This document shows positions 15,543-56,935 of a stretch of 64,000 bases of DNA, in pieces. The stretch spans positions 434,001-498,000 of the forward strand of contig CP145423.1 in NCBI GenBank assembly GCA_036867785.1. The letters are read 5' to 3'. Both the position numbers and the translations under genes were made by a program. Position 1 is the stretch's first letter; each line of letters begins with the position of its first letter. The stretch is from Plasmodiophora brassicae (Eukaryota). Under the pieces are notes generated by a model, which did not search any database, was not told where the DNA came from, and was given only the letters and a program-made list of their open reading frames with translations.

Positions 15543-17242
15543 ATGGCAGCGGACAGGGTGACATTGACGCCGCTCGACGCATTGCCTGGAGTATCAAGTG
15601 CCAAGAGAACCCGTCGAGGTTGGCCACGTTCGCACAGGGCCTGAACTGGGCGCGCTGATGATGATTTCGTGGTCGCAGATTGGACCTATCCAATCGTCGC
15701 GTCGCCTGCTTGGACGACCTGTCGCAATTGTGCCAGACGTTGGCGCTGCCGGCGTCTCTGACCCAGCACGTCGATCTCCGGCACAACGGCCTTGGGCCGG
15801 AGGCAGCCGACCCGATCGCGCGCATGCTCGTCGTCAACAGGTCTCTGCTATCGTTAGGTAGTCGAATGCATCGTTTGTGACGTTGTAATGAATTTCCTAA
15901 CATTGCCTGAGGGTTCAGATCTGCGATGGAACCGCATCGGCACGGCTGGGGCCACCACGCTTCTGTCGTCGCTGACTGAAAACCGGATCCTGCAGGATTG
16001 TCGACTGGCAGGAAACGACGTGGACTCTGTCATCCTGTCGCGAATCGACGATTGCTGCCGGCGGAATCGTTTGCATCGCCCTGGGCCGTACTTGTCGCTT
16101 GCCGACCGCAGCAAACCGTGCCGACCGGTCGTTCCTGTTGCGTTCGGGGACGACCAGCTCAATTCGCTACGCGCCCTGATGTCGTTCGATCGAAAGGTGA
16201 CCCGACGGCACGGCTTCCTGCTCGAACCTGACATGTAGTATCTGGTGGTAGGAGAAGGAGCGCGCGGAGCTCGAGGCGACCAGAGCCCAGAACCGTCTCA
16301 GTGTCGCCCTGAACGATATCCGGCAGCAAGCCTGTCGTGAACGCGATCTGGCAAACGCGTGGGATCGCGAACGGCAACGCCTGGAACACGTCCTGGCCGA
16401 CGCCAGGCGCTCCATTGACAACGAACGAGTCGAGCACGACCGAAAGATCCGTCACCTGGAAGGTCTGAATTACGATATTGTCGCATTCGCCAGTGCCGGC
16501 GCCCGTCCTGAACACACTGCTTTAGAGCGGTGCCTCGTCACCCAGATTAGCAGCGAGGAGATGCAGAAGCACCTGCAGGAGAAGCTGGAGGTGCGCATGC
16601 AGTCCAGTTGCCACTGTATGAGCGGCGCCCTAATATGCCGCGTGGCAGCACTGGCAACGATGCTATGCGGAGATGGAAGGAGAGCATGTCGCTGCTGTCG
16701 AAAGCCAGGAACGCATGGCATCGACGCGCATCCAGGCGGTGTGCAGGCAGAGGGACGCCGCCCAGCATGAGGTGCTGTCGCTGAAGGCGGAGCTGGACGT
16801 CAGCCGGCACGAGATTGCTGAGTTGAGGCGGGCGGCGCAGCAGATGCAGGCGGAAATCGTGTCGCTGAGCAGACAACTCGCCGACAGTTCCACTCAGGTG
16901 TCGCAAGCCAAGGCGGGGGAGGCGGACGCCAAATCGGCACTTGCTATTGTACAGAACCGCCTGGCCATTGCCGAGAAACAAGCGCTGGACAGTGCCGCCC
17001 GCGAACGCGACAACGCGTTATCGATGGCGCATGACTGCATCCATCGGCTGGAGATGGCGCTCGACGCCATGTCGAGCGATGAACGACGCGCGCAGGCTCG
17101 CGAGCAACGTCAGCTCCAGCAACTTCAGCACAAGGAGAAAGCTTCAATGCGGCGCGCCCTCAGCCGCGCTGTCGTCACCGTCGAAAAAGCATTTGCCGAT
17201 GACCAATGCGACCCAGGATACGTCGCAGCCGACTATCTCTAA
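15543..17242 (+). CDS. RNI-like leucine-rich-repeat + coiled-coil protein (LRRC45-like); multi-exon, start approximate
   Basis: LDLSNR, VDLRHNGLGPEAA, DLRWNRIGTAGA and LAGNDV LRRs followed by a long coiled coil. Confidence 0.65.
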
Positions 17243-17779
17243 CTGTGTCGAAGTACACTTGTCATGCGCGTTCGTCCATCATTTATTCATGTCGTATCGG
17301 TCCGGCCAGTGCACCGGGTAGCTTGCCTTTGCCGACGGTTTACCCTTCGATTCCCCGATGGCGTTGTCGGCGTCGTTACCTCGGGTAGCAATGCTGCTGC
17401 GGCGCTTGAATTCACACATTGCCAGGCACCTGTCACTGGTTAGGGCTTCGAGACCGAGGCGCCTGAGTGAAAAGCGCGAAGAACAGAATAAACTAAAACT
17501 AACGACTTCAGTAAACCCGGGCCGCCAAGATGCCCAACACCTGACTGATGCCGCACGGGACAAGAAAACGGTTTGGCGACGTGTTCCGCTTCTGCACGGC
17601 ATCGACCGAAAGCCCAGCTCCCACGCCTTCACGTTTCACTTTCTGGATATACCGAATCCCCAGCCAGCGCGGGTACGCGTTGCTCGCTGCGTAGATGGCG
17701 CTTGGAACCAGCAGGAGCAGGTGCGCTGCGGGATAATGCTCATTGGTATTGTACAATACTAGATGCGTCTCCGTCGCGA

Positions 17780-18330
17780 TGCCCAGATCGGCACACATTG
17801 CGATCGCCGCTACGCTCTGTGGACCTATTGTATGGAGCGTTGGATCAAGTTTATGAAAGGCTAGCTCCTGACCTCAGCAGTATCGGAAGCGTTGCAAGAA
17901 GCTGCAACTTGCGATGGCCGCGACTCTCGTCAGGGCGGATATGAATGGACACCTGATGGCATGACCCTTGCAGAGAAATTGACGGCAATAATATGCCACC
18001 ATTATCGGAACCATTCATGGAAGAAACGTTGCCAAACAGCAGCCGAACGTCAGAACGGCACGTCAGGTGTCCATGCATATCCGCTCTGACGAGAGTCGTG
18101 GCCATAGCAAGTTGCAGCTTCTTGCCGATACTGAACGCTTCCGATACTGCTGAGATCAGAACGCTTCCGATACTGTTGAGGTCAGGAGCCCTTTCATAGA
18201 CTTGATCCAACGCTCCATACAATAGGTCCACAGAAAGACGTAAACGGGGCCCCAATATCGTATTATGTCACAGAGATGCGCGAGCATTGTGGCAACGTCG
18301 GATCCATTGACACAGGAAATACTCATTTGC
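17780..18330. pseudogene. CACTA/EnSpm-type transposase (DUF4218-like) fragments, two copies in inverted orientation
   Basis: MLAHLCDIIRYWGPVYVF.WTYCMERWIKSMK on the minus strand and LWTYCMERWIKFMK on the plus strand; frameshifted. Confidence 0.55.
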
Positions 18331-19196
18331 GTCACCCTCGTCCGGCAGTTTCGCTTCCCCGTCATCGCTGGACTCCAACCATTCCCGAAGAAAGAAGTTG
18401 CCATCGACGTCATCGGGCGACTTTGCCAGAAGTAGTCTCCCACTGCGTCATCATCGGCTGACGACTTCTCCTCCAGTGCGGCGTTCACATCACGACTCAT
18501 CGGCGCGAATCTCACGCTGGACCAACTGATACCTACCCGCGTTCGTTGCGAAGTGCGTGGTATGTACCACTTTCAACTTCCATGACGATCCGGCCGCGCA
18601 GAGAATTGGATCCTGTAACCGGTTGCTGTGACTGCAAGCTGTCCCGAATTGACCGAAATTGACATTCTTGACCTGAATTTGACGCGGAATTTTTCCCAGT
18701 GTTATGCCTCCCTTCGAGAGCACGACCTGCAGTGTCAAAACGTCTTCGATGGCCAGTGCAGCACCCTGAGCGTGGCTGTCGCCATCACGATCCCTAGAGC
18801 AGCATTCTCTGCAGCAGTCGACTGCCGTTCACATGTGGCCCAACATCAGTCGGCCTTGCACTGCAGTCTCCAGCACTGTACTTGTCGTTGGTAGTTGATA
18901 CTCGCAACGTATCGAAGAGGCTACTTAGCATACAAGAAACAGACAACCTGTTTGCTGTAGCCAAGCACACGACCAGCAGCATTTACGCATACATCCGGCG
19001 TGCGCGTCCTGCTAGCGAGATGCTCAGATGAATGATGATGTCGTTTGGCACAGCCCGGCTTCCAGAAAGTGCTTTTCGAGTCGGCCTCCGTCCGAAGGCT
19101 ATTCCCCATCGTCGGCCTTCGGATGGGTGCCAGCCGGTCCATCGGAATAGGGTATAACTATATACAATATTACCTCAAAATACGCCGTGTATCGTC

Positions 19197-21670
19197 CCTA
19201 CCAACGGTCCTACCAGGATCCTACCACGGATCCTACCGCACCCACGGATCCTACCAGACGCCGCCGCCCCCTCCCGGTACAACCAAGCGCACCGCCGCAC
19301 GCATCCCCACGCAGGTTTCCACACCGCATTGTCGACGTCATGGGTCGATCACGATCGTCTGGAGGGCAACGAACGCGCACAGCGGCCCAGTTCCGTGTCA
19401 GCAACCGGGCCAAGTACCATGTCCCCGCCGAGTTATGGGCGGACGCCGTTGTCGGTTTGGGCCTGGTTCGTCGCCGCCTGCGCGTCTCGGAAGGAACGAG
19501 CCGCCCTGTCACCGGGAGCAAGCCCCTGGCCAAGAACTCGGTGCATGCCTACGGCAAGCACATTCGTGGACTCAGGTACTACTGTTGCCTGGTGGGTGAC
19601 TACGACAGCCTTCTTGTCCTGCAGGACGATGCGCCATCTGATCACTGCCCGTCCATGAGTGCGAAGACGTTATCGAACTTTGTTCGGTTCAAGAGGGGCG
19701 TCAATGGGACGCCGCTTGTCGATGCCTCGGGCGTGCCCGTCCTGGATCGGCGTGGGCAGCCTGTCGTCTGCCAAGGCGGGTGGAATGGCCCTGGCAACGT
19801 GGAGCAGTTCGAGTCGGCTGTTACGGCGGTGCATGCGGCGCGCGATCAACGTGGCAACTTTGAAGACGTGTGCAACGCCTGCTGGGACGCGTTCCAGGCG
19901 GCGCGTCAAGCGAGTGCCTGCGGCCGGCATGTTGGACAGCATGACGAATCTTGCGACACGTGCTGGGCGACGTTCTCGAGATCGAGTCAGTCTTTCGGCT
20001 GCTTTCATCACGTCGGACAGCCACGCCTGTGGCGGCGCGGGAATCCTGTGCTGAGTCAAGTTGCGGTCGACACCAAGCAATGGATGAAACGCGAGACGCA
20101 AGGGTACAAGGCAGAGGGTAACTTCGCTCTGCTGCCTGACCAGCTACTCGAGATCAGGCGGCAGCTCGTTGCGACTGGCTCCCTCCGAGACTATTCCACC
20201 TGGGTGTCGATCCTGATCGGCGTCCACCTGTTCCTTCGGGCCGACGAGATCGTCGACATCGCGCTTGAAGATTTCTTGCTCGAGATGACGGCCAAGGACG
20301 ACCTGGACCGCGTCGATCAGCTCGTCATGCAGGTCTGCGGCAAGTCGGAGAGGGCCAAGGCCGAGGGTTCCGTCAATCTGGTCTTGTACCGGCTTGATTC
20401 GCACCCGAAGCTATGCCCCATCCGGGCGTTGTTCACGTTGGTGTCTCGGACACGCATCAAGTCCGGGTTGGTCTTCGGCACGAAGCAACACCTTGACGCG
20501 ATCGACCGAGGCGCCGCTTCGTTCGAATCGTTCCCGGATGGATTGTCCTACGACGAGTTCAACGCCGAGTTCGTTCGTGTTTGCAGGCCTGTCGTCGGCG
20601 ACGACACGATGCACCGGTACGGCCCGCACTCGATCCGCAAGACGGCGTACCTGTTCGCCATCTGGGGTGGTGGCGACCTCGATCACATCAGGCAAGCGGC
20701 GCGCCACAAGACGCTCAAGAACGCGGAATTGTATTATCGCGATTCGAAAGCTCTGCTGGCCCGGGCGCGCAGGACGAACAGCCACGTACTGGCGTTGACG
20801 CCCAAGTGGGAGCCGATCTTCCTGGAGAACCTGCGCAACGCTCGGCGGATCGCTCTCGATAGCAGGTGCCCGCCGCAGTCGAGCTCGATACCCGGGTTGG
20901 CATCGACGTACGTCGCGACACAGCTCCGGGTCGATCCGGCGTCCGTGTCCCTGATGCAGCTCATCTCTCTGGCAGAGCGCGATATCCCTGAGACGCCGGC
21001 GTTTCAACAATTGGAACAACTGCTTCAAACGCATGTGCCCCAGCTGGCACAGACGATGATGTCGCTGGTTAACCAGGTCGTTCTCCAACGACTCAACAAT
21101 TCGGAATCTCAGCCAGCCATCCAGCAGCCACCGGCCCCGCCCCCAGTCCAACCGCCGATGGCGTCGTCATTGTCACCTCCGCCGCCGCTGCCGCAACCTG
21201 ATCCGAACGATGACAACCGGGGGTGCGCGAGGCGAGGCGGTAATGTCGATCTTCCTGGGCGTTCACAGCTGGCCAAGCTTTCGACTTCGTCGGAGAAGAT
21301 TGTGCTGCTTCTATCCATCGAGGCGTCGCTGCCGGCCAGCAAGAAAGACCTGACCGAGCGTGCACGCACGTTCGTCAATCAGGTCGTGACGCCAGTACTG
21401 CGGTGCTACCGCGAACACTGCGCCTCGTCGTTGCCCGAATTCGTCGACAAGTGGGGGGCCAACTTCTCACACTCCCGGTTTTCGAAGGGGTGCGGTTGTG
21501 TGGAGCCCCAATAAATTGGATGATTCGTTCCGGGCCTACCTGCGTTCCCAGCTGGCAATGCGTTCCTGGCGGTTTGCTTGCACCGCCCGGCTATGTACAT
21601 AGGTAGGCCTGGCGGTCACAAAAGTGCGCAGTGCGCGCATTTTTTGTGACCCTCCTACCATCCTACCACG
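19197..21670 (+). mobile_element. Putative Crypton-like YR element delimited by TCCTACC direct-repeat clusters
   Basis: CCTACC repeats at 19197-19256 and 21653-21670; ATCCTACCACG at 19218-19228 and 21660-21670. Confidence 0.5.
19340..21514 (+). CDS. Tyrosine recombinase, intronless, Crypton-like DNA transposon protein
   Basis: Complete catalytic set: R (LFLRADE), K (GKSE), HxxR (HSIRKT), H (ARHK), Y (AELYYRD); LCPIRAL motif; no RT or RNase H nearby. Confidence 0.85.
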   Translation: MGRSRSSGGQRTRTAAQFRVSNRAKYHVPAELWADAVVGLGLVRRRLRVSEGTSRPVTGSKPLAKNSVHAYGKHIRGLRYYCCLVGDYDSLLVLQDDAPSDHCPSMSAKTLSNFVRFKRGVNGTPLVDASGVPVLDRRGQPVVCQGGWNGPGNVEQFESAVTAVHAARDQRGNFEDVCNACWDAFQAARQASACGRHVGQHDESCDTCWATFSRSSQSFGCFHHVGQPRLWRRGNPVLSQVAVDTKQWMKRETQGYKAEGNFALLPDQLLEIRRQLVATGSLRDYSTWVSILIGVHLFLRADEIVDIALEDFLLEMTAKDDLDRVDQLVMQVCGKSERAKAEGSVNLVLYRLDSHPKLCPIRALFTLVSRTRIKSGLVFGTKQHLDAIDRGAASFESFPDGLSYDEFNAEFVRVCRPVVGDDTMHRYGPHSIRKTAYLFAIWGGGDLDHIRQAARHKTLKNAELYYRDSKALLARARRTNSHVLALTPKWEPIFLENLRNARRIALDSRCPPQSSSIPGLASTYVATQLRVDPASVSLMQLISLAERDIPETPAFQQLEQLLQTHVPQLAQTMMSLVNQVVLQRLNNSESQPAIQQPPAPPPVQPPMASSLSPPPPLPQPDPNDDNRGCARRGGNVDLPGRSQLAKLSTSSEKIVLLLSIEASLPASKKDLTERARTFVNQVVTPVLRCYREHCASSLPEFVDKWGANFSHSRFSKGCGCVEPQ

Positions 21671-22087
21671 ACACTAACTTATCGCAGTCCGTGGCCATGT
21701 CGGGATATGTAGCTATCGATACCGACGCTAGCCTGATTTCCATCTCTCGCTCATGCTCTGTTCATCTTCGTACGCTCCGGTATGCCCAATTCTTGCGTCA
21801 AGGGACATTTCTTCTCCAGGCCTTCCTTCGGAATCAGCCGGGCCTTCGGACGGCGACCTGGGTCGCCGAAAACGGCATTTTCTGGAACCCGGGGCACAGC
21901 AAGTGACGGAGTCGTAAGGTATGGTACCCTTTGGTGGTGGAGAAGGAGGAGCGGCGCTCGAAATGTCCTCAAGGCGTTCGCCGAGCCGTCCTCGATAATA
22001 TGTCAGTTGACCTCGATCATTGCGGGCCGTGTGTGGGTTCGTATTCTTATCGGGAAGAACAGTACTGTGCCGATGCTTTTCGGTCAA

Positions 22088-23113
22088 TTACGATTGTACT
22101 GAACGAAAGGAGATACCAACAGTAGCGTTTCCAGCGGGTAGGTATCGAAACGTGGCACGAGCTGCTGATAGGAACGGGACGCCTAGCGTCCACATGTGGC
22201 TGTCGTGGGCTCGAAATTTGACAACGCAACCCTGCTGGTTGTCCTCAATCATGGTCCAGTGACGCCAGCCGATCGCCACAATCTTGCCTTGAACAACGAC
22301 GCTCAGGACAGGCCAGGAATCCCGACTCTGGCAATTCGATATGAACCCGTTGTCGTCGGCGTTCAGCAGGCGGAAGATTGGGCGCGCCTGCCGGGAAGGG
22401 ATTCTGATCCAGGTGCAACCTGTATCTGTTTGGCAATGCAAGTAAGATCATGTGCGTAAATACAGATTGTGGCATCACCGACCAATTAGGGCATGCGCAG
22501 CTCTATGGACAGTGCCCCCGAACTGAATCGAATCCGTGAGGATCTCCCACGACGGCGTCGGCGACGGTATCGTGGTCACCCACACCATGTCACGGTCGGT
22601 CGCATCGCCGGTGATCATGACGACGCCCTTCGAGACATCAAAGGTGATCATTGTCCCGTTAGTAGCGGCGAGAAACGTCATTGCAGCGGGGCTCGCTGGT
22701 GATAACCCCATCACGCCATACATTCGTCCATCAGCGTCTGACGCTTTAACGCTCGTTCTGTCAACTATCCCTAGCCGCAACCTGGCTGATGTCGCGTTAG
22801 CCATGCCACCCAGAGTTGCGACATCGTCGCCCGTGACGCCGAACGACCCGGTGCCGTCCGCGTAATGCACGTCGAACGGAACGCCCGTCGCGGCATACGA
22901 TGATGACAGGGTCGGATTAAAGGACGGCGCGCCGACCGCTGGCACCCAGGAATGGGTCGACCCGGTGTCCAGTTCGACCAGCACTGATTGCGCTGGGGTC
23001 CCAATCGACATTCCCGCCAGGAACATGTCGTTCACGGCCACGAGCGGGACGACCTGCTGGTCGGCGACCGCGTTGCCAATCGCGAGTAGGGCGACGATAG
23101 CTCGCCACCACAT
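22088..23113 (-). CDS. Secreted pepsin-like (A1) aspartic protease; one likely intron
   Basis: Signal peptide MWWRAIVALLAIG; IGTPAQ..LDTGS, flap Y (HYADG), GVMGL; second DTG after a short intron; WTLGVPFL. Confidence 0.85.
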
Positions 23114-23806
23114 CTCGAGGCGTTTCAGTGAATGGGGCGGAACCAGCGTTCCGCCATGAGTCATGCGTGCTGAGAAGTGAACCAACAATGGGCCACGACG
23201 TCACGGAGACTGTATTGAAAACGGAGGCTGTCAAAAGGAACAGCTCCATGAATCAGACTGTGCGCACGGTGGCGCCGGGTTCGGCGCGCAGGGCTGGCTC
23301 CTTGACGATTGCGAGCGGCCGCCACGTGCAGCTACCTATGTAGGTAAGGCACCCAGAACTGGCCAAAGCCCGAGCGGGCTCGCGGATTAAGAATCCGCAG
23401 AGTTTGCGACCGACGCAGACGCTGCAGCTGTCGTCCGTTGCACGAGAAAAAATCGGCAATCCGAGCGGGCCCCGTCTCTCATGGTGATTGAGGTCCGCTG
23501 TAAAAACGTCCTGCACAAAGAGTCCCCCCCCCCCCCCCACTGATCGCATCACGACCAACATCACGATTTCCGTCACAATACAAAATTACGATCACCCATT
23601 CGATGCCACTCGCAGTCTCCACCAGAGGTCCGAGACGAAAAACCTCCCACAGAGACGCGGCACCTTCCTGGAACACGGAGACACCCCGCGGCGCAATGAA
23701 TCGGCGCCGTCGCCACTGGTGTCGGCAGTCGCGCACAACCCATCTGGGAACCTGACTGGACTCTGAGTCTTACTGGCGCCCGCACCTGGCCTGCCGCCGG
23801 GGCACA

Positions 23807-24550
23807 ATGAATCCGGCGCCGATTGTTGCGGACGTCGGCGTCAACGCCATCTTGCCAGCGATCCCGGCGGCACCGCCGCTTCAGCGGGTGGGCGCCGCCC
23901 ATTTACGTCTCAGGGTCGCCGAGGTCCACAATGCGTCGTCCTGCGGGCTCGCCGTGACGACGTCAGATCTGGGCGACCACGTCACGTTCGTTGTCGCCTG
24001 CGACAACGCCAACGTCCCGGGCGCCGTCGTGGGACCGCCCGCCTGGGCCGCGCCGCTGCTCGAGCTTCCGGCACAAGTTGCCGCTTTACAAGGTCAAGTT
24101 GCCGCTTTACAAGGTCAAGTTGCCGCTTTACAAGGTCAAGTTGCCGCTTTACAAGGTCAAGTTGCCGCTTTACAAGGTCAAGTTGCCGCTTTACAAGGTC
24201 AAGTTGCCGCTTTACAAGGTCAAGTTGCCGCAGTACGAGAGCAACTCGTCGCGCAAGACGCCGCGATGCAAGCGCTAGACGCGCGGATCCTCAACGGGAC
24301 GGTTGAGGCGCCTGACGACATGATCGTGGCCGTTGTCAACGCGGCCGGCGATGCCGTGCCGGCGGCGTTCCCGGCGACGCGTCGGCAACTAACGGCGCTG
24401 ACCGGCGCTCACGCGAACGGTCTGCTGGCCTATTACGGAATGCCGGCGGGCGGCACCGTCGCGCAGCCGTCGGCGTCTGGCGCGCCGTCTCGGCGTGCGC
24501 AATGTAGGCGTTATCCAGTAGTCCTGATCCGAGCCCTCGAGCGGACATAA
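23807..24550 (+). pseudogene. Mug135-like (DUF1773 C-terminal) heptad-repeat gene, copy 1; 2-bp deletion frameshifts the last helix
   Basis: FPATRRQLTALTG..LLAYYGM motif; 7x 21-bp QVAALQG units at 24074-24220; CAGCCGTCGG versus CAGCGCCGTCGG in copy 2. Confidence 0.7.
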
Positions 24551-24666
24551 CCCCCCCGTTTCTTGAACACGGTCCTTGATGAGGTGTGGGTTTCAAAAGA
24601 CGAGCAATTATCTCCTATGTAAAAGACGCTCGACTTGAAGAACTGACCAAATTCGGGCAGTTTCCT

Positions 24667-25209: not shown

Positions 25210-25931
25210 TAGTGTTGTATTTTAAAATATTTTGGGAATTTCGAATATTTTAAATATTTTAAAATGCATTTTAAAATATACTCGAATATTTTTTATTCAG
25301 AAATACCATTACCACAGCACAGCGGCACATAGCGACGCCGATAGCAGTACGTATACTCCAGTCACGTTCGTTGCGGCCGGTTATAACCATTCCCTCTAAT
25401 TCGACAACTTCCTCGAAGTCGAAGTTGCCCAGGTACTGTACTGACCAAGAATGCTCGATGGGTAAGTTGCGCTCGTCAGTCCGGCCTGTACTCGCATGAC
25501 GATCCAAAGTTTGCTTGGAGTATGGAACACGGTCGGAGCACTGATTGCACTCTGCTTGATCCAAAGCGCAACCGGCAGGTTTCGGAATCCGTTTGAACTG
25601 CTCATGGATGCTATCTCGGGGGCACTCACGCTTACATACGACCCATCGGCGTCGGGACTACGTCGTCTCCGGGCTCCGGCGTCGGTCGACACTCGGGACT
25701 GACAAGCGTAAGCACGCAAACTGCATGCCTCGCGAACTTGAAACGGACTATGGACCCACGTACCACGAGTCTACGACCCCGTGATGCCCTGTGATGGTCG
25801 CCTGGCACCTAGGGCCTGCTCTGCATGCTGGGCAATTTAAAATATAAAAAATGGCCCAAAATTCAGGAGGTATTTTAAAATGTATTTTAAATACCTATTT
25901 AAAATACGTATTTCAAATACCCGCATCACTA
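25210..25931. mobile_element. Non-autonomous hAT-type element (722 bp)
   Basis: Ends TAGTGTTG..CATCACTA; 8-bp TSD GTCCTGAC at 25202-25209 and 25932-25939; AT-rich TATTTTAAA subterminal repeats; BED-finger-like remnant CNQC..LDRH; the empty site is seen at the paralogous loci. Confidence 0.85.
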
Positions 25932-25973
25932 GTCCTGACTGGGCGCCCGCATCTGGCCTGCCGCCGCGGCACA

Positions 25974-26573
25974 ATGAATCCGGCGCCGATTGTTGCGGAC
26001 GCCGGCGTCAACGCCATCTTGCCAGCGATCCCGGCGGCACCGCCGCTTCAGCGGGTGCGCGCCGCCCATTTACGTCTCAGGGTCGCCGAGGCCCGCAATG
26101 CGTCGTCCGGCGGTCTCGCCGTGACGACGTCAGAACTGGGCGACCACGTCACGTTCGTTGTCGCCTGCGCCAACGCCAACATCCCGGGCGCCGTCGCCGC
26201 CGGCGCGGGACCGCCCGCCTGGGCCGCGCCGCTGCTCGAGCTTCCGGCACAAGTTGCCGCTTTACAAGGTCAAGTTGCCGCAGTACGAGAGCAACTCGTC
26301 GCGCAAAACGCCGCGATGCAAGCGCTAGACGCGCGGATCCTCAACGGGACGGTTGAGGCGCCTGACGACATGATCGTGGCCGTTCTCAACGCGGCCGGCG
26401 ATGCCGTGCCGGCGGCGTTCCCGGCGACGCGTCGGCAACTAACGGCGCTGACCGGCGCTCACGCGAACGGTCTGCTGGCCTATTACGGAATGCCGGCGGG
26501 CGGCACCGTCGCGCAGCGCCGTCGGCGTCTGGCGCGCCGTCTCGGCGTGCGGAATGTAGGCATTATCCAGTAG
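25974..26573 (+). CDS. Mug135-like heptad-repeat protein, copy 2 (1 repeat unit), intact
   Basis: Near-identical to copies 1 and 3; ends RRRRLARRLGVRNVGIIQ. Confidence 0.75.
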   Translation: MNPAPIVADAGVNAILPAIPAAPPLQRVRAAHLRLRVAEARNASSGGLAVTTSELGDHVTFVVACANANIPGAVAAGAGPPAWAAPLLELPAQVAALQGQVAAVREQLVAQNAAMQALDARILNGTVEAPDDMIVAVLNAAGDAVPAAFPATRRQLTALTGAHANGLLAYYGMPAGGTVAQRRRRLARRLGVRNVGIIQ

Positions 26574-26820
26574 TCCTGATCCGATCCCTCGAGCGGACAT
26601 AACCCGCCGTTTCTTGAACACGGTCCTTGACGAAGTGTGGGTTTCAGAGCGTGTTTCAAGTAAAAATAGAGCAAAATCTGTCAGACTTTCGCCCAGTAGC
26701 TTCAGCCTCGATCGGGATGCCCTCGGAACATTCCGAGAGGCCACTGACCAGCTGACTGCGCAATCTATAAAAATCATTCTGTTGCTGTATCACGTCGGGG
26801 CGGACCGTCAACTTCTGACA

Positions 26821-26843: not shown

Positions 26844-29800
26844 ATGTCGAACGAGGCGGCCGAGCAAGTGGGCAAGAAGAGCATGGGGTCGCTTGCCCGG
26901 ATCAGGGACGCGGCCGAAGACTTCAAGGAAGCATTCGTCACCGACACACTGGCGACAGAATCACTGAGGCCTGAGCACGAGCTCGCGAGAGAGGTGGTTG
27001 TCGATAGCATCAATTGCATGGCTGTCTGCAAGTAAAATTGGACGAGAGCGATGAAGGCGCTGAAGCTGGAGGACGATGACGACGTTGACGTCGTCGCTGC
27101 CATGATGCTGACCATGCGAGTGACGGAGGACTGGTTGGAACTTCTAGAGGACATGTACTGCGATCGCCTAGGGGTCAGGAGGAAGCGAACGCAAGCATCG
27201 GAGCGGGCGCAGGCATTGCGATCGAACCCTGAATCAGTTACGCGATCGGCCACGCCAAAGGAACTTGGGATCTCGACCAGAGTGGCGAAGTACTCAGGGA
27301 CAGACGGTATCTGTGCGACGTGGTTCGTTGACTTTGAGGGCATCATGAACCTGCTCCAAGTTGACCAGGCGATGTGGCGCGTATATCTGAACGGATGTTT
27401 CGTGGGCAAGGCAGGGAAGGCGTACACGACGTTCAAGCAGAGCCGGCCCGATGGATGGAGCTATGATGAGCTGAAGGAATACATGGTCGGCATGTTTGAC
27501 ACCAAGGAGATGAAGGACTTATCGAGGGACTTAGACTGGATTCGTCAACAACCGAAGGAGATGGCGAGTGACTTCAGACTACGCTGGGAGTAACTGATGT
27601 CCAAGATTACCCAGAAGGGGACGGTGATGACGGAGGAGTTTCAGATTTCGATTTTGAGGAACCGAATGTTGAGACGTTACGACTTGGATGTCAAGGACTT
27701 CAAGACTAAGGGTGAGCTGTTCAAGCACTGCATCGCCAAAGACCCTAAAGGCATGCGATCGAGCAAGAGGGACGGCAAGAAAGAGGATGGCGAAGATACA
27801 GTGATGTTCACTTTGAAGAACGGGAAGAAGGTCAACCTGGCCACCGTTAAGTGTCACCGATGCAACCAGATGGGACACTTCCAGTGGATGAAAGACAAGT
27901 GTGAAAAGGCCGGCAGTGACGACGGCAAAGATGAGGACGGAGAGATGTTCATGACGGTCAAGGACAAGGGCAAGTTCGACGAGGACATCTGGGTGAATGA
28001 CGATGCAGCCCCGTGGCACGTTTGCAATTCGCGGGAGGCATTTGTGGACATGGACGAATGCCAGGGCAAGGTATTGGGAGGCGGCAAAGAGTATGAGGGC
28101 GCCGACATCGTGGGGATCGGGACCGTGCGGATCACGACAGGGAATGGCAATCAGATCACGCTCAAGGAGACGCGATACGTGCCGAGCTTCAAGACCAATC
28201 TCATATCCGGTCAAAGAGTGATTGACACGGGATGTACGGTGAGCGGAGACAAGACGAAACTGGAGTACATGCGCAAGGGCAAAGTGGTGCTGAGCATGGC
28301 TCGGTACAAAGGGTATTGGGCGCTGAGGGCAACTCCGGAGCCTCAGTCGGTTCTATTCGGACAACCTGGACCGGCGGTGCCGCTGAGCACGTGGCACGAA
28401 CGCCTTGGACATGCATCGTATGACAAGCTGATGAAGTTGATCAAAGAAGAATCGTGCGAGGGCCTAAACGCGTCGGACGTCAAGGCACCTGAGGGGAAGT
28501 GTGTCGATTGCTTTATCGGGAAAAGCAAACGGCAGGCATTCGTGAAAGAAGGCGACGAGGCGAGGGAAATCGGAGAAGTGATACACGCGGACATCAGTGG
28601 CAAGCTCTCTGTCAGGGGACGGAGTGGGAACTGGTACTTCTCCGTACTTCGAGACAAGAAGAGCCGACATGGATGGGTGAAGCTGATCAAGCGGAAAAGC
28701 GAGGCAGGCCAGCACTTCATGGAGTTCAAGCCCTGGTTCGAGCGCCAGACAGGGAGGAAGATCAGAAGATATGCCAACGACAAGGGAGGCGAATACGTGT
28801 CGAAAGAGCTGCGGGAGTATCTGAACGCTGAGGGCATTGAGATTTGGGAGACCAACACTGCCACACCGAATGAGAACGGACTTGCCGAACGATACGTGGG
28901 AATGATCAAGGACATGGCGACTACGAACCACGAACGATCAGGCCTACCGAGAATGTTCTGGGATGATGCCGTGGAACACGCTGGAGTCATCACACCACTT
29001 CTACCAACGAACAAAGTGGAAGACGGGAAGACACCATTCGAGATCATCCACGGGCGGAAGCCACGAGTTTCCCAACTAAGACCATTCGGATGCCAGGCCA
29101 TCGTGTACCAGTCGAAAGACACGCGAAGGAGCTCGAGATCCAAAGCCAAGGGCATCGAAGGAGTGATGATCGGGTATGCGCCCAGCCGCCCAGGGTACAA
29201 GATCTACATCACAACGTCCAAGAAGGTGATCGTTTCAAGAGATGTCGTGTTTAACGAGCATGTGTTCCCCTACAAAATCGTACAGGAGGAGGCGAAGGCG
29301 AAGATGATTATGAACGAGATGGCAATGTTCACTGACGACGAGCCCGACGTGAGAATGCAAGACGTAATGAACGAAGTCATGTTCCAGCAGACCAAGGCGA
29401 GTGAGGTACCACTACCGACATCGTACGAGGAGGCGATCGCGGATGAGAACTGGAAAAGAGCAATTGAGGACGAGCAAGAGGCCATGAGAAATCGCGACGT
29501 GTTCCGACTGATGCCATTGCCGACGGGTCGAAAGGCACTGAAGTGTGACTACGTGTACAAGGCGAAGGCAAATCCTGATGGGTCCGTGAGCAAGTATAAG
29601 GCGCGACTTGTTGCGAAGGGGTACGAACAGGTGAAGGGGATTGACTACGTCGATACCTTTGCACCGGTGGCGAAGCTAGCAACTCTGAGGCTGCTGATTG
29701 GGCTGAAAGTGGTACGACGATACACCGCCTGGCAGAGGGATGTCAAAACGGCATTCCTGTATGCTGACCTGAAGGAGGACGTGTACATCCAACAGCCAAA

Positions 29801-30989
29801 AGGGATGGAAGATGATGACCACCCGGACTGGGTGTGGAAGCTGAATAAGTCGATCTACGGGCTGAAACAAGCATCGATCGAGTTTTACAAGCATCTAGTG
29901 AGCGCATTCCTGAAGGGCGGATTCGAACAATGCAAGAGTGATCCCTGTCTACTGAGGAAGGTCGATGGTGCCGATGTCGTGTTCGTGGCATTTCATGTCG
30001 ACGACATTCCGATTGTGGGGAGCTCGACCCGAATTATGCTCGAGGCTGACCAAGTGCTGAAAGATAATTTCACCGTCGAGGAGAGCGAGTTCGAATGGAT
30101 ACTGGGGATCAACATGAAGTGGTCGCCAGACGGAGGCGTACACCTTAGTCAAGAATCGTTCGTTGAGATGCTCCTGACCAAGTTCCACCTGACGAGCGCC
30201 AAGGGTGCGACCACACCGATTCAAAAGGGGGAGACTATATCAGCACGGGGGAGCCCAAGGACTGATGAAGAGCGGATGGAGTGCAAGCGGCTACCATACC
30301 GGGAGCTAGTCGGATCTCTACTGTACCTCACCGGAACGAGACCTGATATTGCGTTTGTGGTGGGACGACTGTGCCGTTTCATGAGCTGCTACGGCGTGGA
30401 TCATTACGAGGCAGCCAAGCGAGTACTAAGGTATTTGAAGACGACGAAGCACATGGCGTTGAAGTACTCTGGCTGCGAACAGAGCGAACAACTGAAGCTC
30501 ATCGTCGACTCTGATCACGCAGGGTGCCCTGACACTGGAAGGTCCACGACCGGGTACATGATCAAGTTCGGCGAGTGTATGATTACGTGGAAATCGGTGC
30601 TGCAGAAGACTGTGGCGCTGTCAACCACCGAGGCCGAGTACATGGCCTTATGTAGCGGCGTACGCGAGCTACTGTGGGTGAAGCAGGTGTGTGAGTTTCT
30701 TCAGGTCAAATTTGAAGGACCAATCGCGGTATTCACGGACAACACTGGAGCGATGGCCATTTCGAACCACCAAGGGGACGACCTGCGTGGGAGGACCAAG
30801 CATATGAACGTGCGCTACCACTTCACGAAAGAACAAGTACATGCAGGAACCATTAAGCTGCACCATGTACCGAGCACGAAGAACATTGCAGACATTCTCA
30901 CAAAGCCACTAACGAGGGATGCGTTTGAGGGGCATCGGGCGAGGATCCCGATCGATTCTGCGGGGGAGTGTCAGACTTTCGCCCAGTAG
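26844..30989 (+). pseudogene. Copia gag-pol in one frame, interrupted by TAA at 27033 and 27591
   Basis: CHRCNQMGH knuckle; WHERLGH..CVDC; HADISG/DKGGEY/NGLAER integrase; KARLVAKG, FHVDD RT; DSDHAG, TEAEY, ADILTK RNase H. Confidence 0.9.
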
Positions 30990-34229: not shown

Positions 34230-34860
34230 GTGTCACCCCCAGAAATGGACGACAATGGCAGGAGTCGGCAGCCGTTTAAACTGCCCAGCGGTCAGTTAGA
34301 CTCAACGGTATATCTCGTACACGTACCGGGGGACGGTCATTGCGCTGCGCATGCGCTGGCTAAAGCCGGCGTACATGGTGCGGATAGTGCACAGGCGATT
34401 CTTAGGAAGACTGCCGCGTACTATGAGGTTCGAACAATCTTGAACGTAGTGCAGTTCTGCAATGTGCACTGGTGCGGTATAGTTGCCTCAGCGCGAAGAA
34501 GAGTGGTGTTTCTTTACGATCCGTTGATGCGCAAGTCGTTTCAGGACCGATTGCGTTCGATCTGGCACATGTATCTGGCCGAACGTTTGCCAGGTGGGGA
34601 GCAATATAAAGTGGTCCACGTTCGCCCGTTTGTCAAGAGCTGTGACGACCTGTTGTGGTGGGCCAACCACCCAGACCTATACAAATACGCCAACAAGCAA
34701 GTAGACTCGTGGAACTGCGGCGTGTACGTGCTGCAGTGGTTCGAGAGCGTTCTGTGGGAGATGAGCGGCGGCCCCCAACGTCTGGAACCCCGTCACCTGC
34801 CAATGATGCGGCTGTACTACATGGCAATGATTTGTGGTTACGTACGATCACCGATGTATG
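34230..34860 (+). pseudogene. OTU-like N-terminal fragment joined to a Ulp1/C48 protease catalytic core
   Basis: VPGDGHC (OTU Cys loop); HWCGIV, LYDPL and QVDSWNCGVYV (Ulp1 His/Asp/Gln/Cys). Confidence 0.7.
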
Positions 34861-35816
34861 TAAATCATCCGAATGAATATACAGTTTCCGCTCGCTGTGA
34901 ACGTCTAATAATGACAATACTCCCATCGTCCAATCGCTGTTCGACTCAACGCAGCACGGCACCTACCGCATCACGCAATGACCAGCGCTGCAGTACGTGC
35001 TTACGTACCGCGTACAATGCGAACCGAGCACCGCACCGCCGCTGCTGGTCGTTATCGGCTGAGCGGCACTGTGCGTACTGTCACCGTGCTCGCGCGATCG
35101 GTCATCACATCGCCTGCCGACCTGCGCCACAGCTCCTTAACCGTATTTGCCCAGCTCCTAAATGTCGTCTTTGACATCGTCGTCGCCGCCCGACTCTCGG
35201 CGGTCGTCGTTGCGTTTATCCGGGTTGACGTACTCGTGGAGATCGCCGTCGAAGTCGTTGTCTATCGCCATGCCCGATCCCAATCATTCTACGGACGCGG
35301 TTAAGTGCACGATCGCGACGACGGGGACAACGAATACCACAGCGCGTACCTGAAGGCCGTCCTCATTGTGACCGTTGTCGAACTTATCTTGCTGGAGGCC
35401 CAAGAGTTGCTCTTCGTTCTCGATCTGGTCACTGACGTCGGCGCGGCGCACGCTGTAAACGTGGGTCCAACGCTCGCGCCTGGCCGCTGACGAACGCAGA
35501 CACGGATAGAAAAGAGGCTGACAGAGAGTCACAGCCCACACATGCCAGGTTGTAATGGCGCAGGTGGTTGCGGACGGCACAGGCGGCATGCCCTTCCGCA
35601 GATGACCACACCGACAACAACGATTGTTGGTCCCGTGGTAGTCACGAGGCCGGGCGTCCGACGAATGCGATTCGAAACACGGCCCGGCAGCCGAAACCGC
35701 CAGGGCGGGTACGACGCGCACGCATCGTCAATATGCTTTTGTTCTTTATGAGGTCTAATAGCGTTTGCAGCTTTCCCGAACACGACCGCCCGCCCGAACA
35801 TTCGCCCACGGAGGAG

Positions 35817-54859: not shown

Positions 54860-56935
54860 TCACCAGTAGTCGCCGCAGGAGCAGCGCCCGGCGTGGAAGT
54901 GGTGGTGGCGGTTGCCGTCGCGCACGTGCACGTCGCGGTGGAACAGGGCGGAGACGCGCCGCGTGCTCTCGTGACAGTCCGTGCAGGCCCTCAGGGTCTT
55001 GGTCAGCCGGATCGGCTCGTCGGGCGGCAGGACGTGCAGGGCGTACGCGATGGCGATCTTCTCGCTGTGCGCGAACACGACCCGGCGCAAGTCGTCGTCG
55101 GACGCGCCGCGCCTGGTCGCCACGGAGACGTCGGGCGCGTACCCGTCCCGCTCGAGGTCCTCCATCAGCCGCGCGTGGCGCCGCCTCAATTCCGGGTCGG
55201 CGTGCACCTTGGCGTCGTTCGCGTAAAAGTGCACGACAGACCGATCGGGGAGCAGGAGCGACGTTCGGCCGGGCACCTTGGACAGGCCCTGCGCCCGCAT
55301 GCGGTCGCGTAGCCGGTCGACGTCGTCGAACCGCCCAGCCGCCGCGTACACGTTCGACATCAGCACGTAGGCGGCTGCCGCGTACGACGACGAGCCCGGC
55401 AGCGCCAGCACGTTCGCGAACGCGCGTTCAGCGCGCGGCAGATCGTTGTGCCTGCGGCACGCGCTGAGCACCGCCATCCAGGACACGACGTTCGCGCCCG
55501 GGGCCGCCGCCGCCATCCGCTCGGCCTCGTCCAGGTTCCCGACCCGCCCATGCAGGCCGATCATGCAGTTCAGGTGCTCGTCGGCGGCGGCGACGCTCCA
55601 GGTCGACGTGAACTCGGCGGCGATCGCGTTCGCGCGACGCAGGTCGCCGGCATGGCCGCAGGCCGACAGCAGGGAGGACAGCGTGTGCCCGGTCGGCCGC
55701 ACGCCGCACGCCTTCATGCACTCGAACGTCGTGGTCGCCTGCGGCAGCATGCCGTGATGGCTGTAGGCCGAGATCATCGAGTTGAACGCGAAGGCGTCCG
55801 GCGGGGGCGACCCGGCCAGACGGGCGGTGAACGCGTCCTCGGCCGCCGGCAGGCACCCGCAGTCGTTGTAGGCGGCCACCAACGCGCTGACGACAGCGTC
55901 GTCCAGCGCGAGCCCTTCGTCGATCGCGTATCGATGCAGCGTGTGCAACGCGGCGAGCTCGGTGCAGCGTCCGCACGCGCGAACGAACAACGTGAACACG
56001 GGCAGGTCGACGGGGATGCCCCGGTCGACCATGGCCCGGAACACGTCCAGGGCGTCGGCGATGCGGGACGCCCTGCAGAGGGCCGACAGGATATGGGTGC
56101 GGATCCGGTCGGACGGCGGCAGGCCAACGGCGTCCATGACGGGCAGCGCCTGCAGGGCGGCGTCGACCCGGTTCTGCGACAGCAGCGCCTTGAACAGGTT
56201 GCCGAAGATCGTCTGGTTGTGCGGGGCCGCGATCGACGCCGACCGGACGAGGGCGAGAATCCGCTCGGCAACGTCGGCCGCCAGCGGCGACCTCGCCTCG
56301 GCGCAGCACGCCGCGAACATGGACAGGAGCTTGTCCGACATCTCGACGCCGTTGTCGATCGCGTCCGACACGAGGAACAAGGCGGACGCCGGGTTCTTCG
56401 ACAGCCTGCAGATGTTGGCGACGCCGAAGATGACGTTATGCGAACGCGGGCCGCTCTTCGCGTAGTGCTCGACGGCTTCCCGGGCCAGCACCGGGCGGGC
56501 CGCCTGGCACGCGCCGAGGAACGTGCAGAACAGGACGTCGGTGATGCGGACCCGGCGATCCGCGGCGGCGGCCATGACGTCCGGCGCCTTCGCCGGTAGG
56601 CACCGTTTGCAGACCTGCATCATGCTCGTGAAGAAGCGCACGTCTACGGCGACGCCCGCGTGGAGCACGCACTGGAACATGATCCAGGCGCGGCGCGGCT
56701 CCCACTCGTGCTGCAGCGCGCGAACCGCCAGCGACGCCGACGGCCGCGACACGGTCGCGCGGAACAGGCCCGACCCGGGCGCCATCGGCACCGCGTTCGC
56801 CGAAGCTGCAGGCGCAACTCGCGACGTCCGCCCATCCCGCCTCAGGGGGCGCAGCACCGCCAGCGAACTGCACCGGGCCCGCTGACCCCGCCCTGTCACG
56901 CCGCAGCAGCGAACGATCGCCGGCAGTGGGACCAT
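54860..56935 (-). CDS. PPR protein with E domains and an intact DYW cytidine-deaminase domain, intronless
   Basis: PPR motifs (FNSMISAYSHHG..G.RP), E1/E2 (YVLMSNVYAAAGRF), PG box, HSEK..CTDCH, HHF..GRCSCGDYW. Confidence 0.93.
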   Translation of the reverse strand: MVPLPAIVRCCGVTGRGQRARCSSLAVLRPLRRDGRTSRVAPAASANAVPMAPGSGLFRATVSRPSASLAVRALQHEWEPRRAWIMFQCVLHAGVAVDVRFFTSMMQVCKRCLPAKAPDVMAAAADRRVRITDVLFCTFLGACQAARPVLAREAVEHYAKSGPRSHNVIFGVANICRLSKNPASALFLVSDAIDNGVEMSDKLLSMFAACCAEARSPLAADVAERILALVRSASIAAPHNQTIFGNLFKALLSQNRVDAALQALPVMDAVGLPPSDRIRTHILSALCRASRIADALDVFRAMVDRGIPVDLPVFTLFVRACGRCTELAALHTLHRYAIDEGLALDDAVVSALVAAYNDCGCLPAAEDAFTARLAGSPPPDAFAFNSMISAYSHHGMLPQATTTFECMKACGVRPTGHTLSSLLSACGHAGDLRRANAIAAEFTSTWSVAAADEHLNCMIGLHGRVGNLDEAERMAAAAPGANVVSWMAVLSACRRHNDLPRAERAFANVLALPGSSSYAAAAYVLMSNVYAAAGRFDDVDRLRDRMRAQGLSKVPGRTSLLLPDRSVVHFYANDAKVHADPELRRRHARLMEDLERDGYAPDVSVATRRGASDDDLRRVVFAHSEKIAIAYALHVLPPDEPIRLTKTLRACTDCHESTRRVSALFHRDVHVRDGNRHHHFHAGRCSCGDYW

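Follow-up and report, generated by a model that had tools for sequence, protein, structure and literature searches.

Cryptons are, to our knowledge, the least understood class of eukaryotic DNA transposons, and the DNA site at which the recombinase acts is unknown for nearly all of them. The ends of these elements are hard to define. Goodwin and co-workers reportedly proposed that Cryptons excise as a circle and integrate by site-specific recombination. In published descriptions, Cryptons are said to have no terminal inverted repeats (TIRs) and to carry direct repeats of 4-6 nucleotides (nt) (PMC3212892; PMC13465315). The present analysis concerns a locus within a 64,000-nt stretch of the genome of the clubroot parasite Plasmodiophora brassicae (assembly GCA_036867785.1, contig CP145423.1, positions 434,001 to 498,000 of the forward strand), called the window in what follows, with a G+C content of ~60%. 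All positions refer to this window. The locus holds an open reading frame (ORF) for a tyrosine recombinase (YR) of 724 amino acids (aa), and the unit around it, at 19054-21894, is with good probability one copy of an autonomous Crypton-type DNA transposon of P. brassicae with this YR as its sole gene.

The element is well bounded and multi-copy, its ORF is found in contigs of runs with evidence of splicing, and its TIRs are a departure from the Cryptons described so far. Judged from the sequence, it stands out by its two inverted ends, from which a recombination site can be predicted. The first-pass annotation, made from the sequence letters, had suggested a poorly described and possibly active Crypton-like lineage, and this suggestion is supported by the sole ORF of a bounded repeated unit, the lack of a reverse transcriptase (RT), the ORF contigs in the splicing runs and the mostly synonymous differences between copies. 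A full-text literature search combining Crypton and Plasmodiophora returned no paper describing such an element, as judged by title and abstract. Inverted arms around a short spacer would provide a concrete, testable site and link Crypton integration to the mechanism of Cre, Flp and Xer. In addition, a multi-copy YR element could underlie rearrangements among isolates of this uncultivable crop parasite without having been recognised as their source; in one Chlamydomonas strain, active Cryptons lie behind most inversions and translocations (PMC9977147).

Boundaries, copies and transcription of the element

The limits of the unit were read from Logan contigs of four runs mapped on positions 17000-24000, of which X1 and X8 are DNA and X10 and X18 are RNA by guess. 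In X1 and X8, left-flank contigs of unique depth stop at 19082 and 19084, 29-31 nt inside the element, and right-flank contigs of unique depth begin at 21866; a repeat contig stops at 21892, and loose ends of contigs from other copies lie at 19051 and 19055. An imperfect TIR begins exactly at these read-derived boundaries and pairs 46 nt (19054-19099) with 52 nt (21893-21842). The local alignment score of this pair is 41 as compared to 15.4 +/- 2.2 in shuffled sequence, with 0 of 500 shuffles reaching 41, and blastn aligns it at 77% over 52 columns (E 0.001). It is the only significant inverted repeat between the two flanks, and the pentamer CACAG abuts both element ends. The contig boundaries, together with the TIRs that start there and are flanked by CACAG, thus delimit a repeated unit of ~2.84 kb at 19054-21894 with one long ORF and no RT. 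The parts of this unit are as follows.

19049-19053, no strand: 5-nt direct repeat CACAG in the left flank, read from the sequence
19054-19099, plus strand: left TIR, from local alignment, blastn and contig ends; the outermost 19 nt (19054-19072) form the best-conserved arm
19340-21514, plus strand, stop codon included: YR ORF, open for 724 aa under the standard code
21842-21894, minus strand: right TIR, from local alignment, blastn and contig ends
21895-21899, no strand: 5-nt direct repeat CACAG in the right flank, read from the sequence

The ORF and the absence of an RT within the 2.84-kb unit, both part of the first-pass annotation, are hence borne out. Pfam finds nothing else within the unit, and no DDE-transposase ORF, RT, RNase H or capsid gene lies there. 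A second copy of the element was not found in the window.

Several lines of evidence show that the unit is repeated in the genome. Word depth inside the element is 5-12 times that of the unique flanks, with contig depths of 173-451 inside and 35.7-43.8 in the flanks in X1, and of 267-323 inside and 53.8-68.6 in the flanks in X8, and the internal contigs are short and variant-rich. The copy-number check proposed in the first pass thus gives a multi-copy unit. Moreover, a joint 19721>21292 with one inserted base is found in X1 as well as X8 and is the trace of a copy with an internal deletion. Three other joints (17480>23536, 18639>22547 and 19825>21311) were disregarded, as each has only 20 nt on one side and occurs in one run.

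The multiplicity of the unit bears on the explanation that the gene is a domesticated recombinase serving the host, that is, single-copy, syntenic and immobile, which the first-pass annotation had entertained. Domestication would agree with an intact ORF, with listed differences that are mostly synonymous, with ORF contigs in the splicing runs and with the presence of the ORF at this locus in both DNA runs, yet it would leave unexplained why contigs inside the element, in several variants, reach 5-12 times the depth of the flanks, why a deletion derivative exists and why loose ends lead into other flanks. The TIRs and the direct repeat at the boundaries speak against it as well, as do records of P. 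brassicae proteins and fragments, near-identical to this one, on contigs of five distinct lengths. A multi-copy unit with TIRs and a deleted copy leaves this explanation unsupported and barely credible.

Transcription was addressed through the two remaining runs. X10 and X18, unlike the DNA runs, each have a contig with a joint 22425>22483 that skips 57 nt (22426-22482), and the skipped segment has CT..AC ends on the plus strand, corresponding to a GT..AG intron of an aspartyl-protease gene on the minus strand. Because this intron is skipped there and not in the DNA runs, X10 and X18 contain spliced RNA. Stretches without cover in both, e.g., 17000-17233 and 17702-18169, are a hint only that little genomic DNA is present. 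The ORF contigs in X10/X18 measure 2008 nt (19673-21672; 35 other letters and 13 gap positions) and 1551 nt (19673-21223; 23 differences). As these contigs represent the majority variant rather than the window copy, transcription can be stated for the element family only.

The differences between copies also carry information on selection. Among the listed ORF differences between the window copy and the majority variant, 15 of 24 are synonymous (86 further differences are not among these), an excess as purifying selection on the protein would give, and one to be expected if functional copies alone multiply within a lineage. Among the near-identical proteins on record is P0154, a P. brassicae protein of 725 aa named 'Tyr recombinase domain-containing protein' that is 98% identical to the window protein (710/723). 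The amino-acid changes reproduce P0154 residues at 7 of the 8 affected codons; codon 122 gives K, where P0154 has Q.

The recombinase and its family

The 724-aa protein can be divided into five parts along its length, listed below with the evidence for each.

19511-19864, plus strand: conserved N-terminal domain, residues ~58-175, probably the core-binding domain, from conserved columns and a weak pairing with Cre
19871-20032, plus strand: two tandem CxxC-x12-CxxH units, residues 178-204 and 205-231, from self-comparison and the family alignment
20123-20839, plus strand: catalytic domain, residues ~262-500, with R300, K335, H430, R433, H456 and Y465, from the family alignment, hhalign to Cre and a PHROG match
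21110-21205, plus strand: Pro-rich linker, residues 591-622, read from the translation and variable among relatives
21227-21511, plus strand: conserved C-terminal domain, residues ~630-724, with C689, F701 and a terminal Cys cluster, from the alignment of relatives

As far as sequence can tell, the window protein is a tyrosine recombinase with a complete catalytic set in typical spacing. All residues of the R-K-HxxR-H-Y set named in the first pass were found and are kept across a family alignment of 42 full-length sequences, in which R300, K335, H456 and Y465 do not vary and at least 90% of the sequences have H430 and R433; conservation of the catalytic residues across this alignment means that the motif string is not a product of chance. 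In an hhalign comparison with P1 Cre, a weak match overall, R300, H430, R433, H456 and Y465 are placed on R173, H289, R292, W315 and Y324, respectively, and the spacings of 23 residues (R to H/W) and 9 residues (H/W to Y) are equal in the two proteins. K335 is not placed on Cre K201. Upstream of the catalytic domain, residues 140-260 pair weakly with the N-terminal domain of Cre in the same comparison, and the conserved columns of the N-terminal domain are Y71, G86, D87, L126, W148 and H165. The PHROG integrase family phrog_1 matches residues 371-495 of the window protein (E 0.004) and 8 of the 42 relatives (best E 1.1e-10), and phrog_216 matches 5 of the 42. Below the Pfam threshold, NDC10_II is matched by 6 of the 42 relatives (E<=0.01) and Phage_integrase by one (E 0.005). 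NDC10_II is also matched, again below threshold, by one of 77 further relatives (E<=0.001); these 77 were the longest of 111 then unscanned, 34 short ones being left out, and together with the 42 they make up the 119 relatives scanned.

The zinc module, called unusual in the first pass, and the C-terminal domain, called unknown there, are no peculiarities of one gene, as both are family-wide. The internal duplication is real, as the two tandem units of 27 aa are identical at 10 of 27 aa and at 45 of 81 nt. A single unit is found at the same place in three relatives, one of them named Spongospora subterranea. In the 42-sequence alignment, C178, C181 and C221 do not vary at all and H224 is kept in 90% or more of the sequences, so the module is a family trait. 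The duplicated unit was seen only in two P. brassicae proteins, the window protein and P0154, and the lineage-specific part would accordingly be the 27-aa duplication of the zinc module only. The Pro-rich stretch and the C-terminal domain are likewise both there as first described. C689 and F701 of the latter are at least 90% conserved in the alignment, and 51 of the 150 listed relatives (out of 1178) align to query residue 700 or further. The C-terminal domain of the window protein has no Pfam match and does not resemble GCR1_C at E<=1.

An exhaustive search recovered 1178 family representatives at E<=1e-3, of which 668 reach E<=1e-10 and 174 reach E<=1e-30. This recombinase family, which comprises over 1000 clusters at 50% identity and is not represented by a Pfam model, constitutes a gap in the annotation of transposable elements (TEs) in protist and chytrid genomes. 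The 30 clusters that were looked up by name include P. brassicae and Spongospora, the chytrids Zopfochytrium, Blyttiomyces and Boothiomyces, the oomycete Aphanomyces stellatus and a metagenome-assembled genome of Bacillariaceae. For many relatives, the contig measures 2.3-3.9 kb, in keeping with an element of ~2.84 kb. In a FastTree phylogeny of 57 rows, unrooted, without an outgroup and with several long-branch joins, the window protein groups with P0154, Spongospora and a further row, P0002 (support 100). A group with support 99 encloses this one together with chytrid and Aphanomyces rows, and the diatom row falls elsewhere. Relatives were found neither in viral contigs, with the patterns used, nor in prokaryote genomes (0 in each). 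Word-indexed homologue searches yielded three hits each, a number too small to reach named stramenopile relatives.

A search for related loci also found six in metagenomes (L001-L006), among which no conserved non-coding ends were found. L001, a distant relative on a metagenome contig, has a palindrome at 56-105, ~200 nt upstream of its recombinase ORF, with arms of 24+24 nt around a 2-nt centre and built from a repeated 9-mer. This palindrome, the only short one among the relatives and an anecdotal, single case, may represent either a recombination site or an end-to-end junction.

The extent of the unit and the make-up of the family together bear on a further explanation, namely that the locus derives from a larger mobile element, as its remnant or as one of its modules; examples would be an RT-less DIRS-like retroelement, a polinton-like virus or a giant cargo element with this YR as its integrase. 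YRs indeed serve as integrases in DIRS/Ngaro elements, in Starships and in many integrated viruses, and the surrounding 28-40 kb are TE-rich and of lower G+C. Unique-depth sequence, however, starts directly outside 19054 and 21894 in two runs, and a unit that holds none of the RT, RNase H and capsid genes of such elements offers little to connect it with them. The right-terminal 214 nt of the unit do occur in a different sequence context in one contig, as a module shared with another element might, whereas the Starship captain domain DUF3435 is found in 0 of 119 relatives and viral contigs yielded no relative. An origin from a larger element is therefore considered highly improbable.

Returning to an autonomous Crypton-type element, a wider proposal may be put forward tentatively, although the odds are clearly against it. 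The family could represent a separate, unnamed Crypton-like superfamily in Rhizaria, chytrids, oomycetes and diatoms, of which the P. brassicae lineage is active today and carries a complete site in its own ends. The architecture of such a superfamily would comprise the N-terminal domain, a CxxC...CxxH finger, the YR and the conserved C-terminal domain, all outside Pfam. If so, it would be the first Crypton whose lox-like site can be predicted, as well as a candidate for a self-contained eukaryotic site-specific recombinase system.

A predicted recombination site in the element ends

The inverted ends allow a mechanism to be proposed by analogy with Cre, Flp and Xer and with the Goodwin model for Cryptons. 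In a first step, the recombinase would excise the element as a circle. In this circle, the right arm (21875-21893) and the left arm (19054-19072), which match at 17 of 19 positions, would face each other across a spacer of 6 nt made up of base 21894 and one CACAG, giving the layout of inverted arms plus short spacer of a YR core site. Strand exchange between this spacer and a matching CACAG-like target would then lead to insertion and leave the pentamer on both sides. Typical YR sites consist of two inverted repeats of 11-13 bp that lie 6-8 bp apart (PMC3212892), and by comparison with this published layout the 19-nt arms around 6 nt make the element ends look like two halves of a YR site. Finally, it could be speculated that the zinc-finger units and the C-terminal domain, together with two sets of short repeats near the element ends, supply accessory (arm-type) DNA binding. 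These repeats were found by motif counts over the window.

19091-19099 (minus strand), 19115-19123 (plus strand) and 21842-21850 (plus strand): subterminal GCCTTCGGA motifs
19208-19255, plus strand: four direct TCCTACC repeats upstream of the ORF
21653-21667, plus strand: two direct TCCTACC repeats downstream of the ORF

Three of the four GCCTTCGGA matches in the window lie in the element ends, with 0.53 expected per window and 0 of 100 shuffles reaching four. Six of the eight TCCTACC matches in the window lie inside the element, all on the plus strand, where 3.17 would be expected in the window.

TIRs with a short flanking direct repeat are also the signature of cut-and-paste DDE elements, and published Cryptons are said to have no TIRs, so the unit may instead be moved in trans by a DDE transposase encoded elsewhere; the 5-nt repeat would then be a true target-site duplication, and the YR would be cargo or a resolvase. 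Tec elements are a published parallel for movement of this kind. A further one is MarCry-1_FO, in which a Crypton is fused to Mariner and moved by the DDE transposase (Kojima and Jurka, PMC3212892). At the present locus, however, the 2.84-kb unit holds no DDE ORF, and tblastn and Pfam scans of the window revealed no transposase paired with the unit. Nor would a cargo gene be expected to retain the full YR catalytic set in a family with over 1000 clusters or to differ between copies by mostly synonymous changes in the list, and the 2.3-3.9-kb contigs of relatives hold only the recombinase ORF. As inverted arms with a 6-nt spacer are just what a YR needs, mobilisation by a DDE transposase appears unlikely. 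A Transib-like reading of the 5-nt repeat was dropped, since the pentamer is repeated directly rather than in inverted orientation and a DDE ORF is absent.

The interpretation as an autonomous Crypton with a YR site in its ends must also be set against a number of results that weigh against it. On the side of the protein, the hhalign match to P1 Cre is weak (E 6e-4, probability 28%, 273 columns), and lambda Int gives no match in the same type of comparison (probability 0.8%). The window protein is without a Pfam match, and among the 119 relatives scanned no match reaches the gathering score. PDB sequence searches with profiles of 4 and 42 sequences returned chance matches only, the best being an MBP-huntingtin fusion aligned over low-complexity sequence (E 0.0098). 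On the side of the DNA, the CACAG repeat was seen for one copy only; the k-mer boundaries lie at ~19053-19055 and 21895 and suggest that the presence of CACAG on both sides is not shared by other copies. No TIR is present in L002, the sole relative with both flanks on its contig (score 21, shuffle mean 21.2). Summed contig depth is not a copy number, and the multi-copy call rests on per-contig depth, fragmentation, variants and loose ends. The window copy itself has private substitutions, and 9 of its 24 listed differences are non-synonymous. Lastly, the first-pass annotation had proposed looking for empty sites and circle junctions; neither joint is listed among the contigs of the four runs, a weak negative as contigs drop rare forms, and both DNA runs (isolates) carry the insertion at the locus.

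Neighbouring features and comparison with known systems

Several other features were observed around the element. As to the right end, the terminal 214 nt (21679-21892) recur inside an X10 contig of 2345 nt that otherwise has a different sequence, and loose ends lie at 21672 and 21679 in the DNA runs; this recurrence suggests that solo ends exist or that another type of element has the same terminus. The aspartyl-protease gene at 22088-23164 (minus strand), whose 57-nt intron at 22426-22482 is spliced out in contigs of two runs, has a spliced frame of 339 aa that stops at ~22088, 194 nt from the right end of the transposon at 21894. To the left of the element, 17816-18234 forms a long imperfect palindrome of three collinear arm pairs (45, 30 and 63 nt, 94-98% complementary) around a 106-nt centre. 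In the DNA runs, contig depth around it exceeds that of the unique flanks, and the adjoining 18404-18637 is very deep in X10; the palindrome may belong to another repeat family or to a hairpin-forming element.

Further to the right, a segment of ~0.9 kb occurs twice, at 23700-24600 and 25940-26650, with 96-99% identity and ~2.05 kb apart, each copy holding a coiled-coil-like ORF (23807-24550; 25851-26573) with 21-nt tandem repeats. At 27597-30989 (plus strand), an open pol ORF of the Copia type (1130 aa) has protease-barrel, integrase and RVT_2 domains and may be another intact TE, so the first-pass description of the neighbouring TEs as decayed is not fully right. At 34245-35174 (plus strand), a weak match to a Ulp1/C48 peptidase falls below threshold (E 0.0015). 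Some oomycete Cryptons carry a C48 peptidase gene (PMC3212892), and the ORF was considered as a part of the element and rejected, as it lies 12.7 kb outside the repeat boundaries. Two adjacent pentatricopeptide repeat (PPR) genes at 54860-56935 and 57058-59463 (both minus strand) combine an E motif with a DYW deaminase domain (E 5.6e-28 and 1.3e-22, respectively), the PPR-E-DYW architecture of plant-type RNA-editing factors, here in a phytomyxid genome.

Compared with described systems, the element shares with Cryptons in general a YR as the only gene, the lack of an RT, the presence in several copies and a short direct repeat (CACAG, one copy), and differs from them by the 46/52-nt imperfect TIR at its boundaries. 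The subgroups of Cryptons can be distinguished by the domains beside the YR. CryptonF is defined by a GCR1_C domain C-terminal to the YR, whereas the present family has another C-terminal domain and a zinc-finger module; GCR1_C was found in 0 of 119 relatives (0/42 at E<=0.01 and 0/77 at E<=0.001). Among Pfam models derived from eukaryotic YRs, NDC10_II, which represents the Ndc10/Cbf2 domain derived from CryptonF, is the only one matched by any relative, in each case below the gathering score. The terminal pentamer of the element is similar in form to that of CryptonF-1_cRei of Chlamydomonas, which ends in CACCG, targets CAYCG and has been seen to insert and excise cleanly (PMC9977147). The DUF3504 domain of the CryptonA type was found in 0 of 119 relatives.

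The closest description is that of CryptonS, which is reported to have no GCR1_C, a conserved C-terminus, direct repeats of 5-6 nt, mostly TATGG termini and oomycete and diatom hosts (Kojima and Jurka 2011, Mob DNA 2:12; PMC3212892). Compared by description only, the present element is alike in having only a YR, no GCR1_C, a C-terminus conserved within its own family and a 5-nt direct repeat, and the hosts overlap in kind, as oomycetes and a diatom are among those of CryptonS and the family of the element has members in Aphanomyces stellatus and a Bacillariaceae sp. In contrast to CryptonS as described, the element has a phytomyxid (Rhizaria) host, chytrid members in its family, TIRs and no TATGG termini, the nearest TATGG lying 26 nt outside the right end and none being present at the left end. 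There is about an even chance, or slightly better, that a tree would place the element in or next to CryptonS.

Starships and DIRS elements are likewise eukaryotic elements mobilised by a YR and can have TIRs and short flanking direct repeats (PMC13465315). The present element differs from Starships in that it has neither the captain domain nor cargo and measures only 2.84 kb. It differs from DIRS, Ngaro and VIPER elements in having no RT, RNase H or methyltransferase, the nearest RT belonging to the separate Copia element at 27597-30989. With Cre, the window protein has catalytic residues and their spacings in common, yet it is twice as long and has additional zinc-finger and C-terminal domains. 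In Cre/loxP, Flp/FRT and XerCD/dif, two inverted arms surround a spacer of 6-8 nt, and the circle junction predicted here would have the same layout, with 19-nt arms around 6 nt. Unlike the sites of Cre, Flp and Xer, this predicted site would form only upon circularisation, as the chromosomal arms lie 2.8 kb apart.

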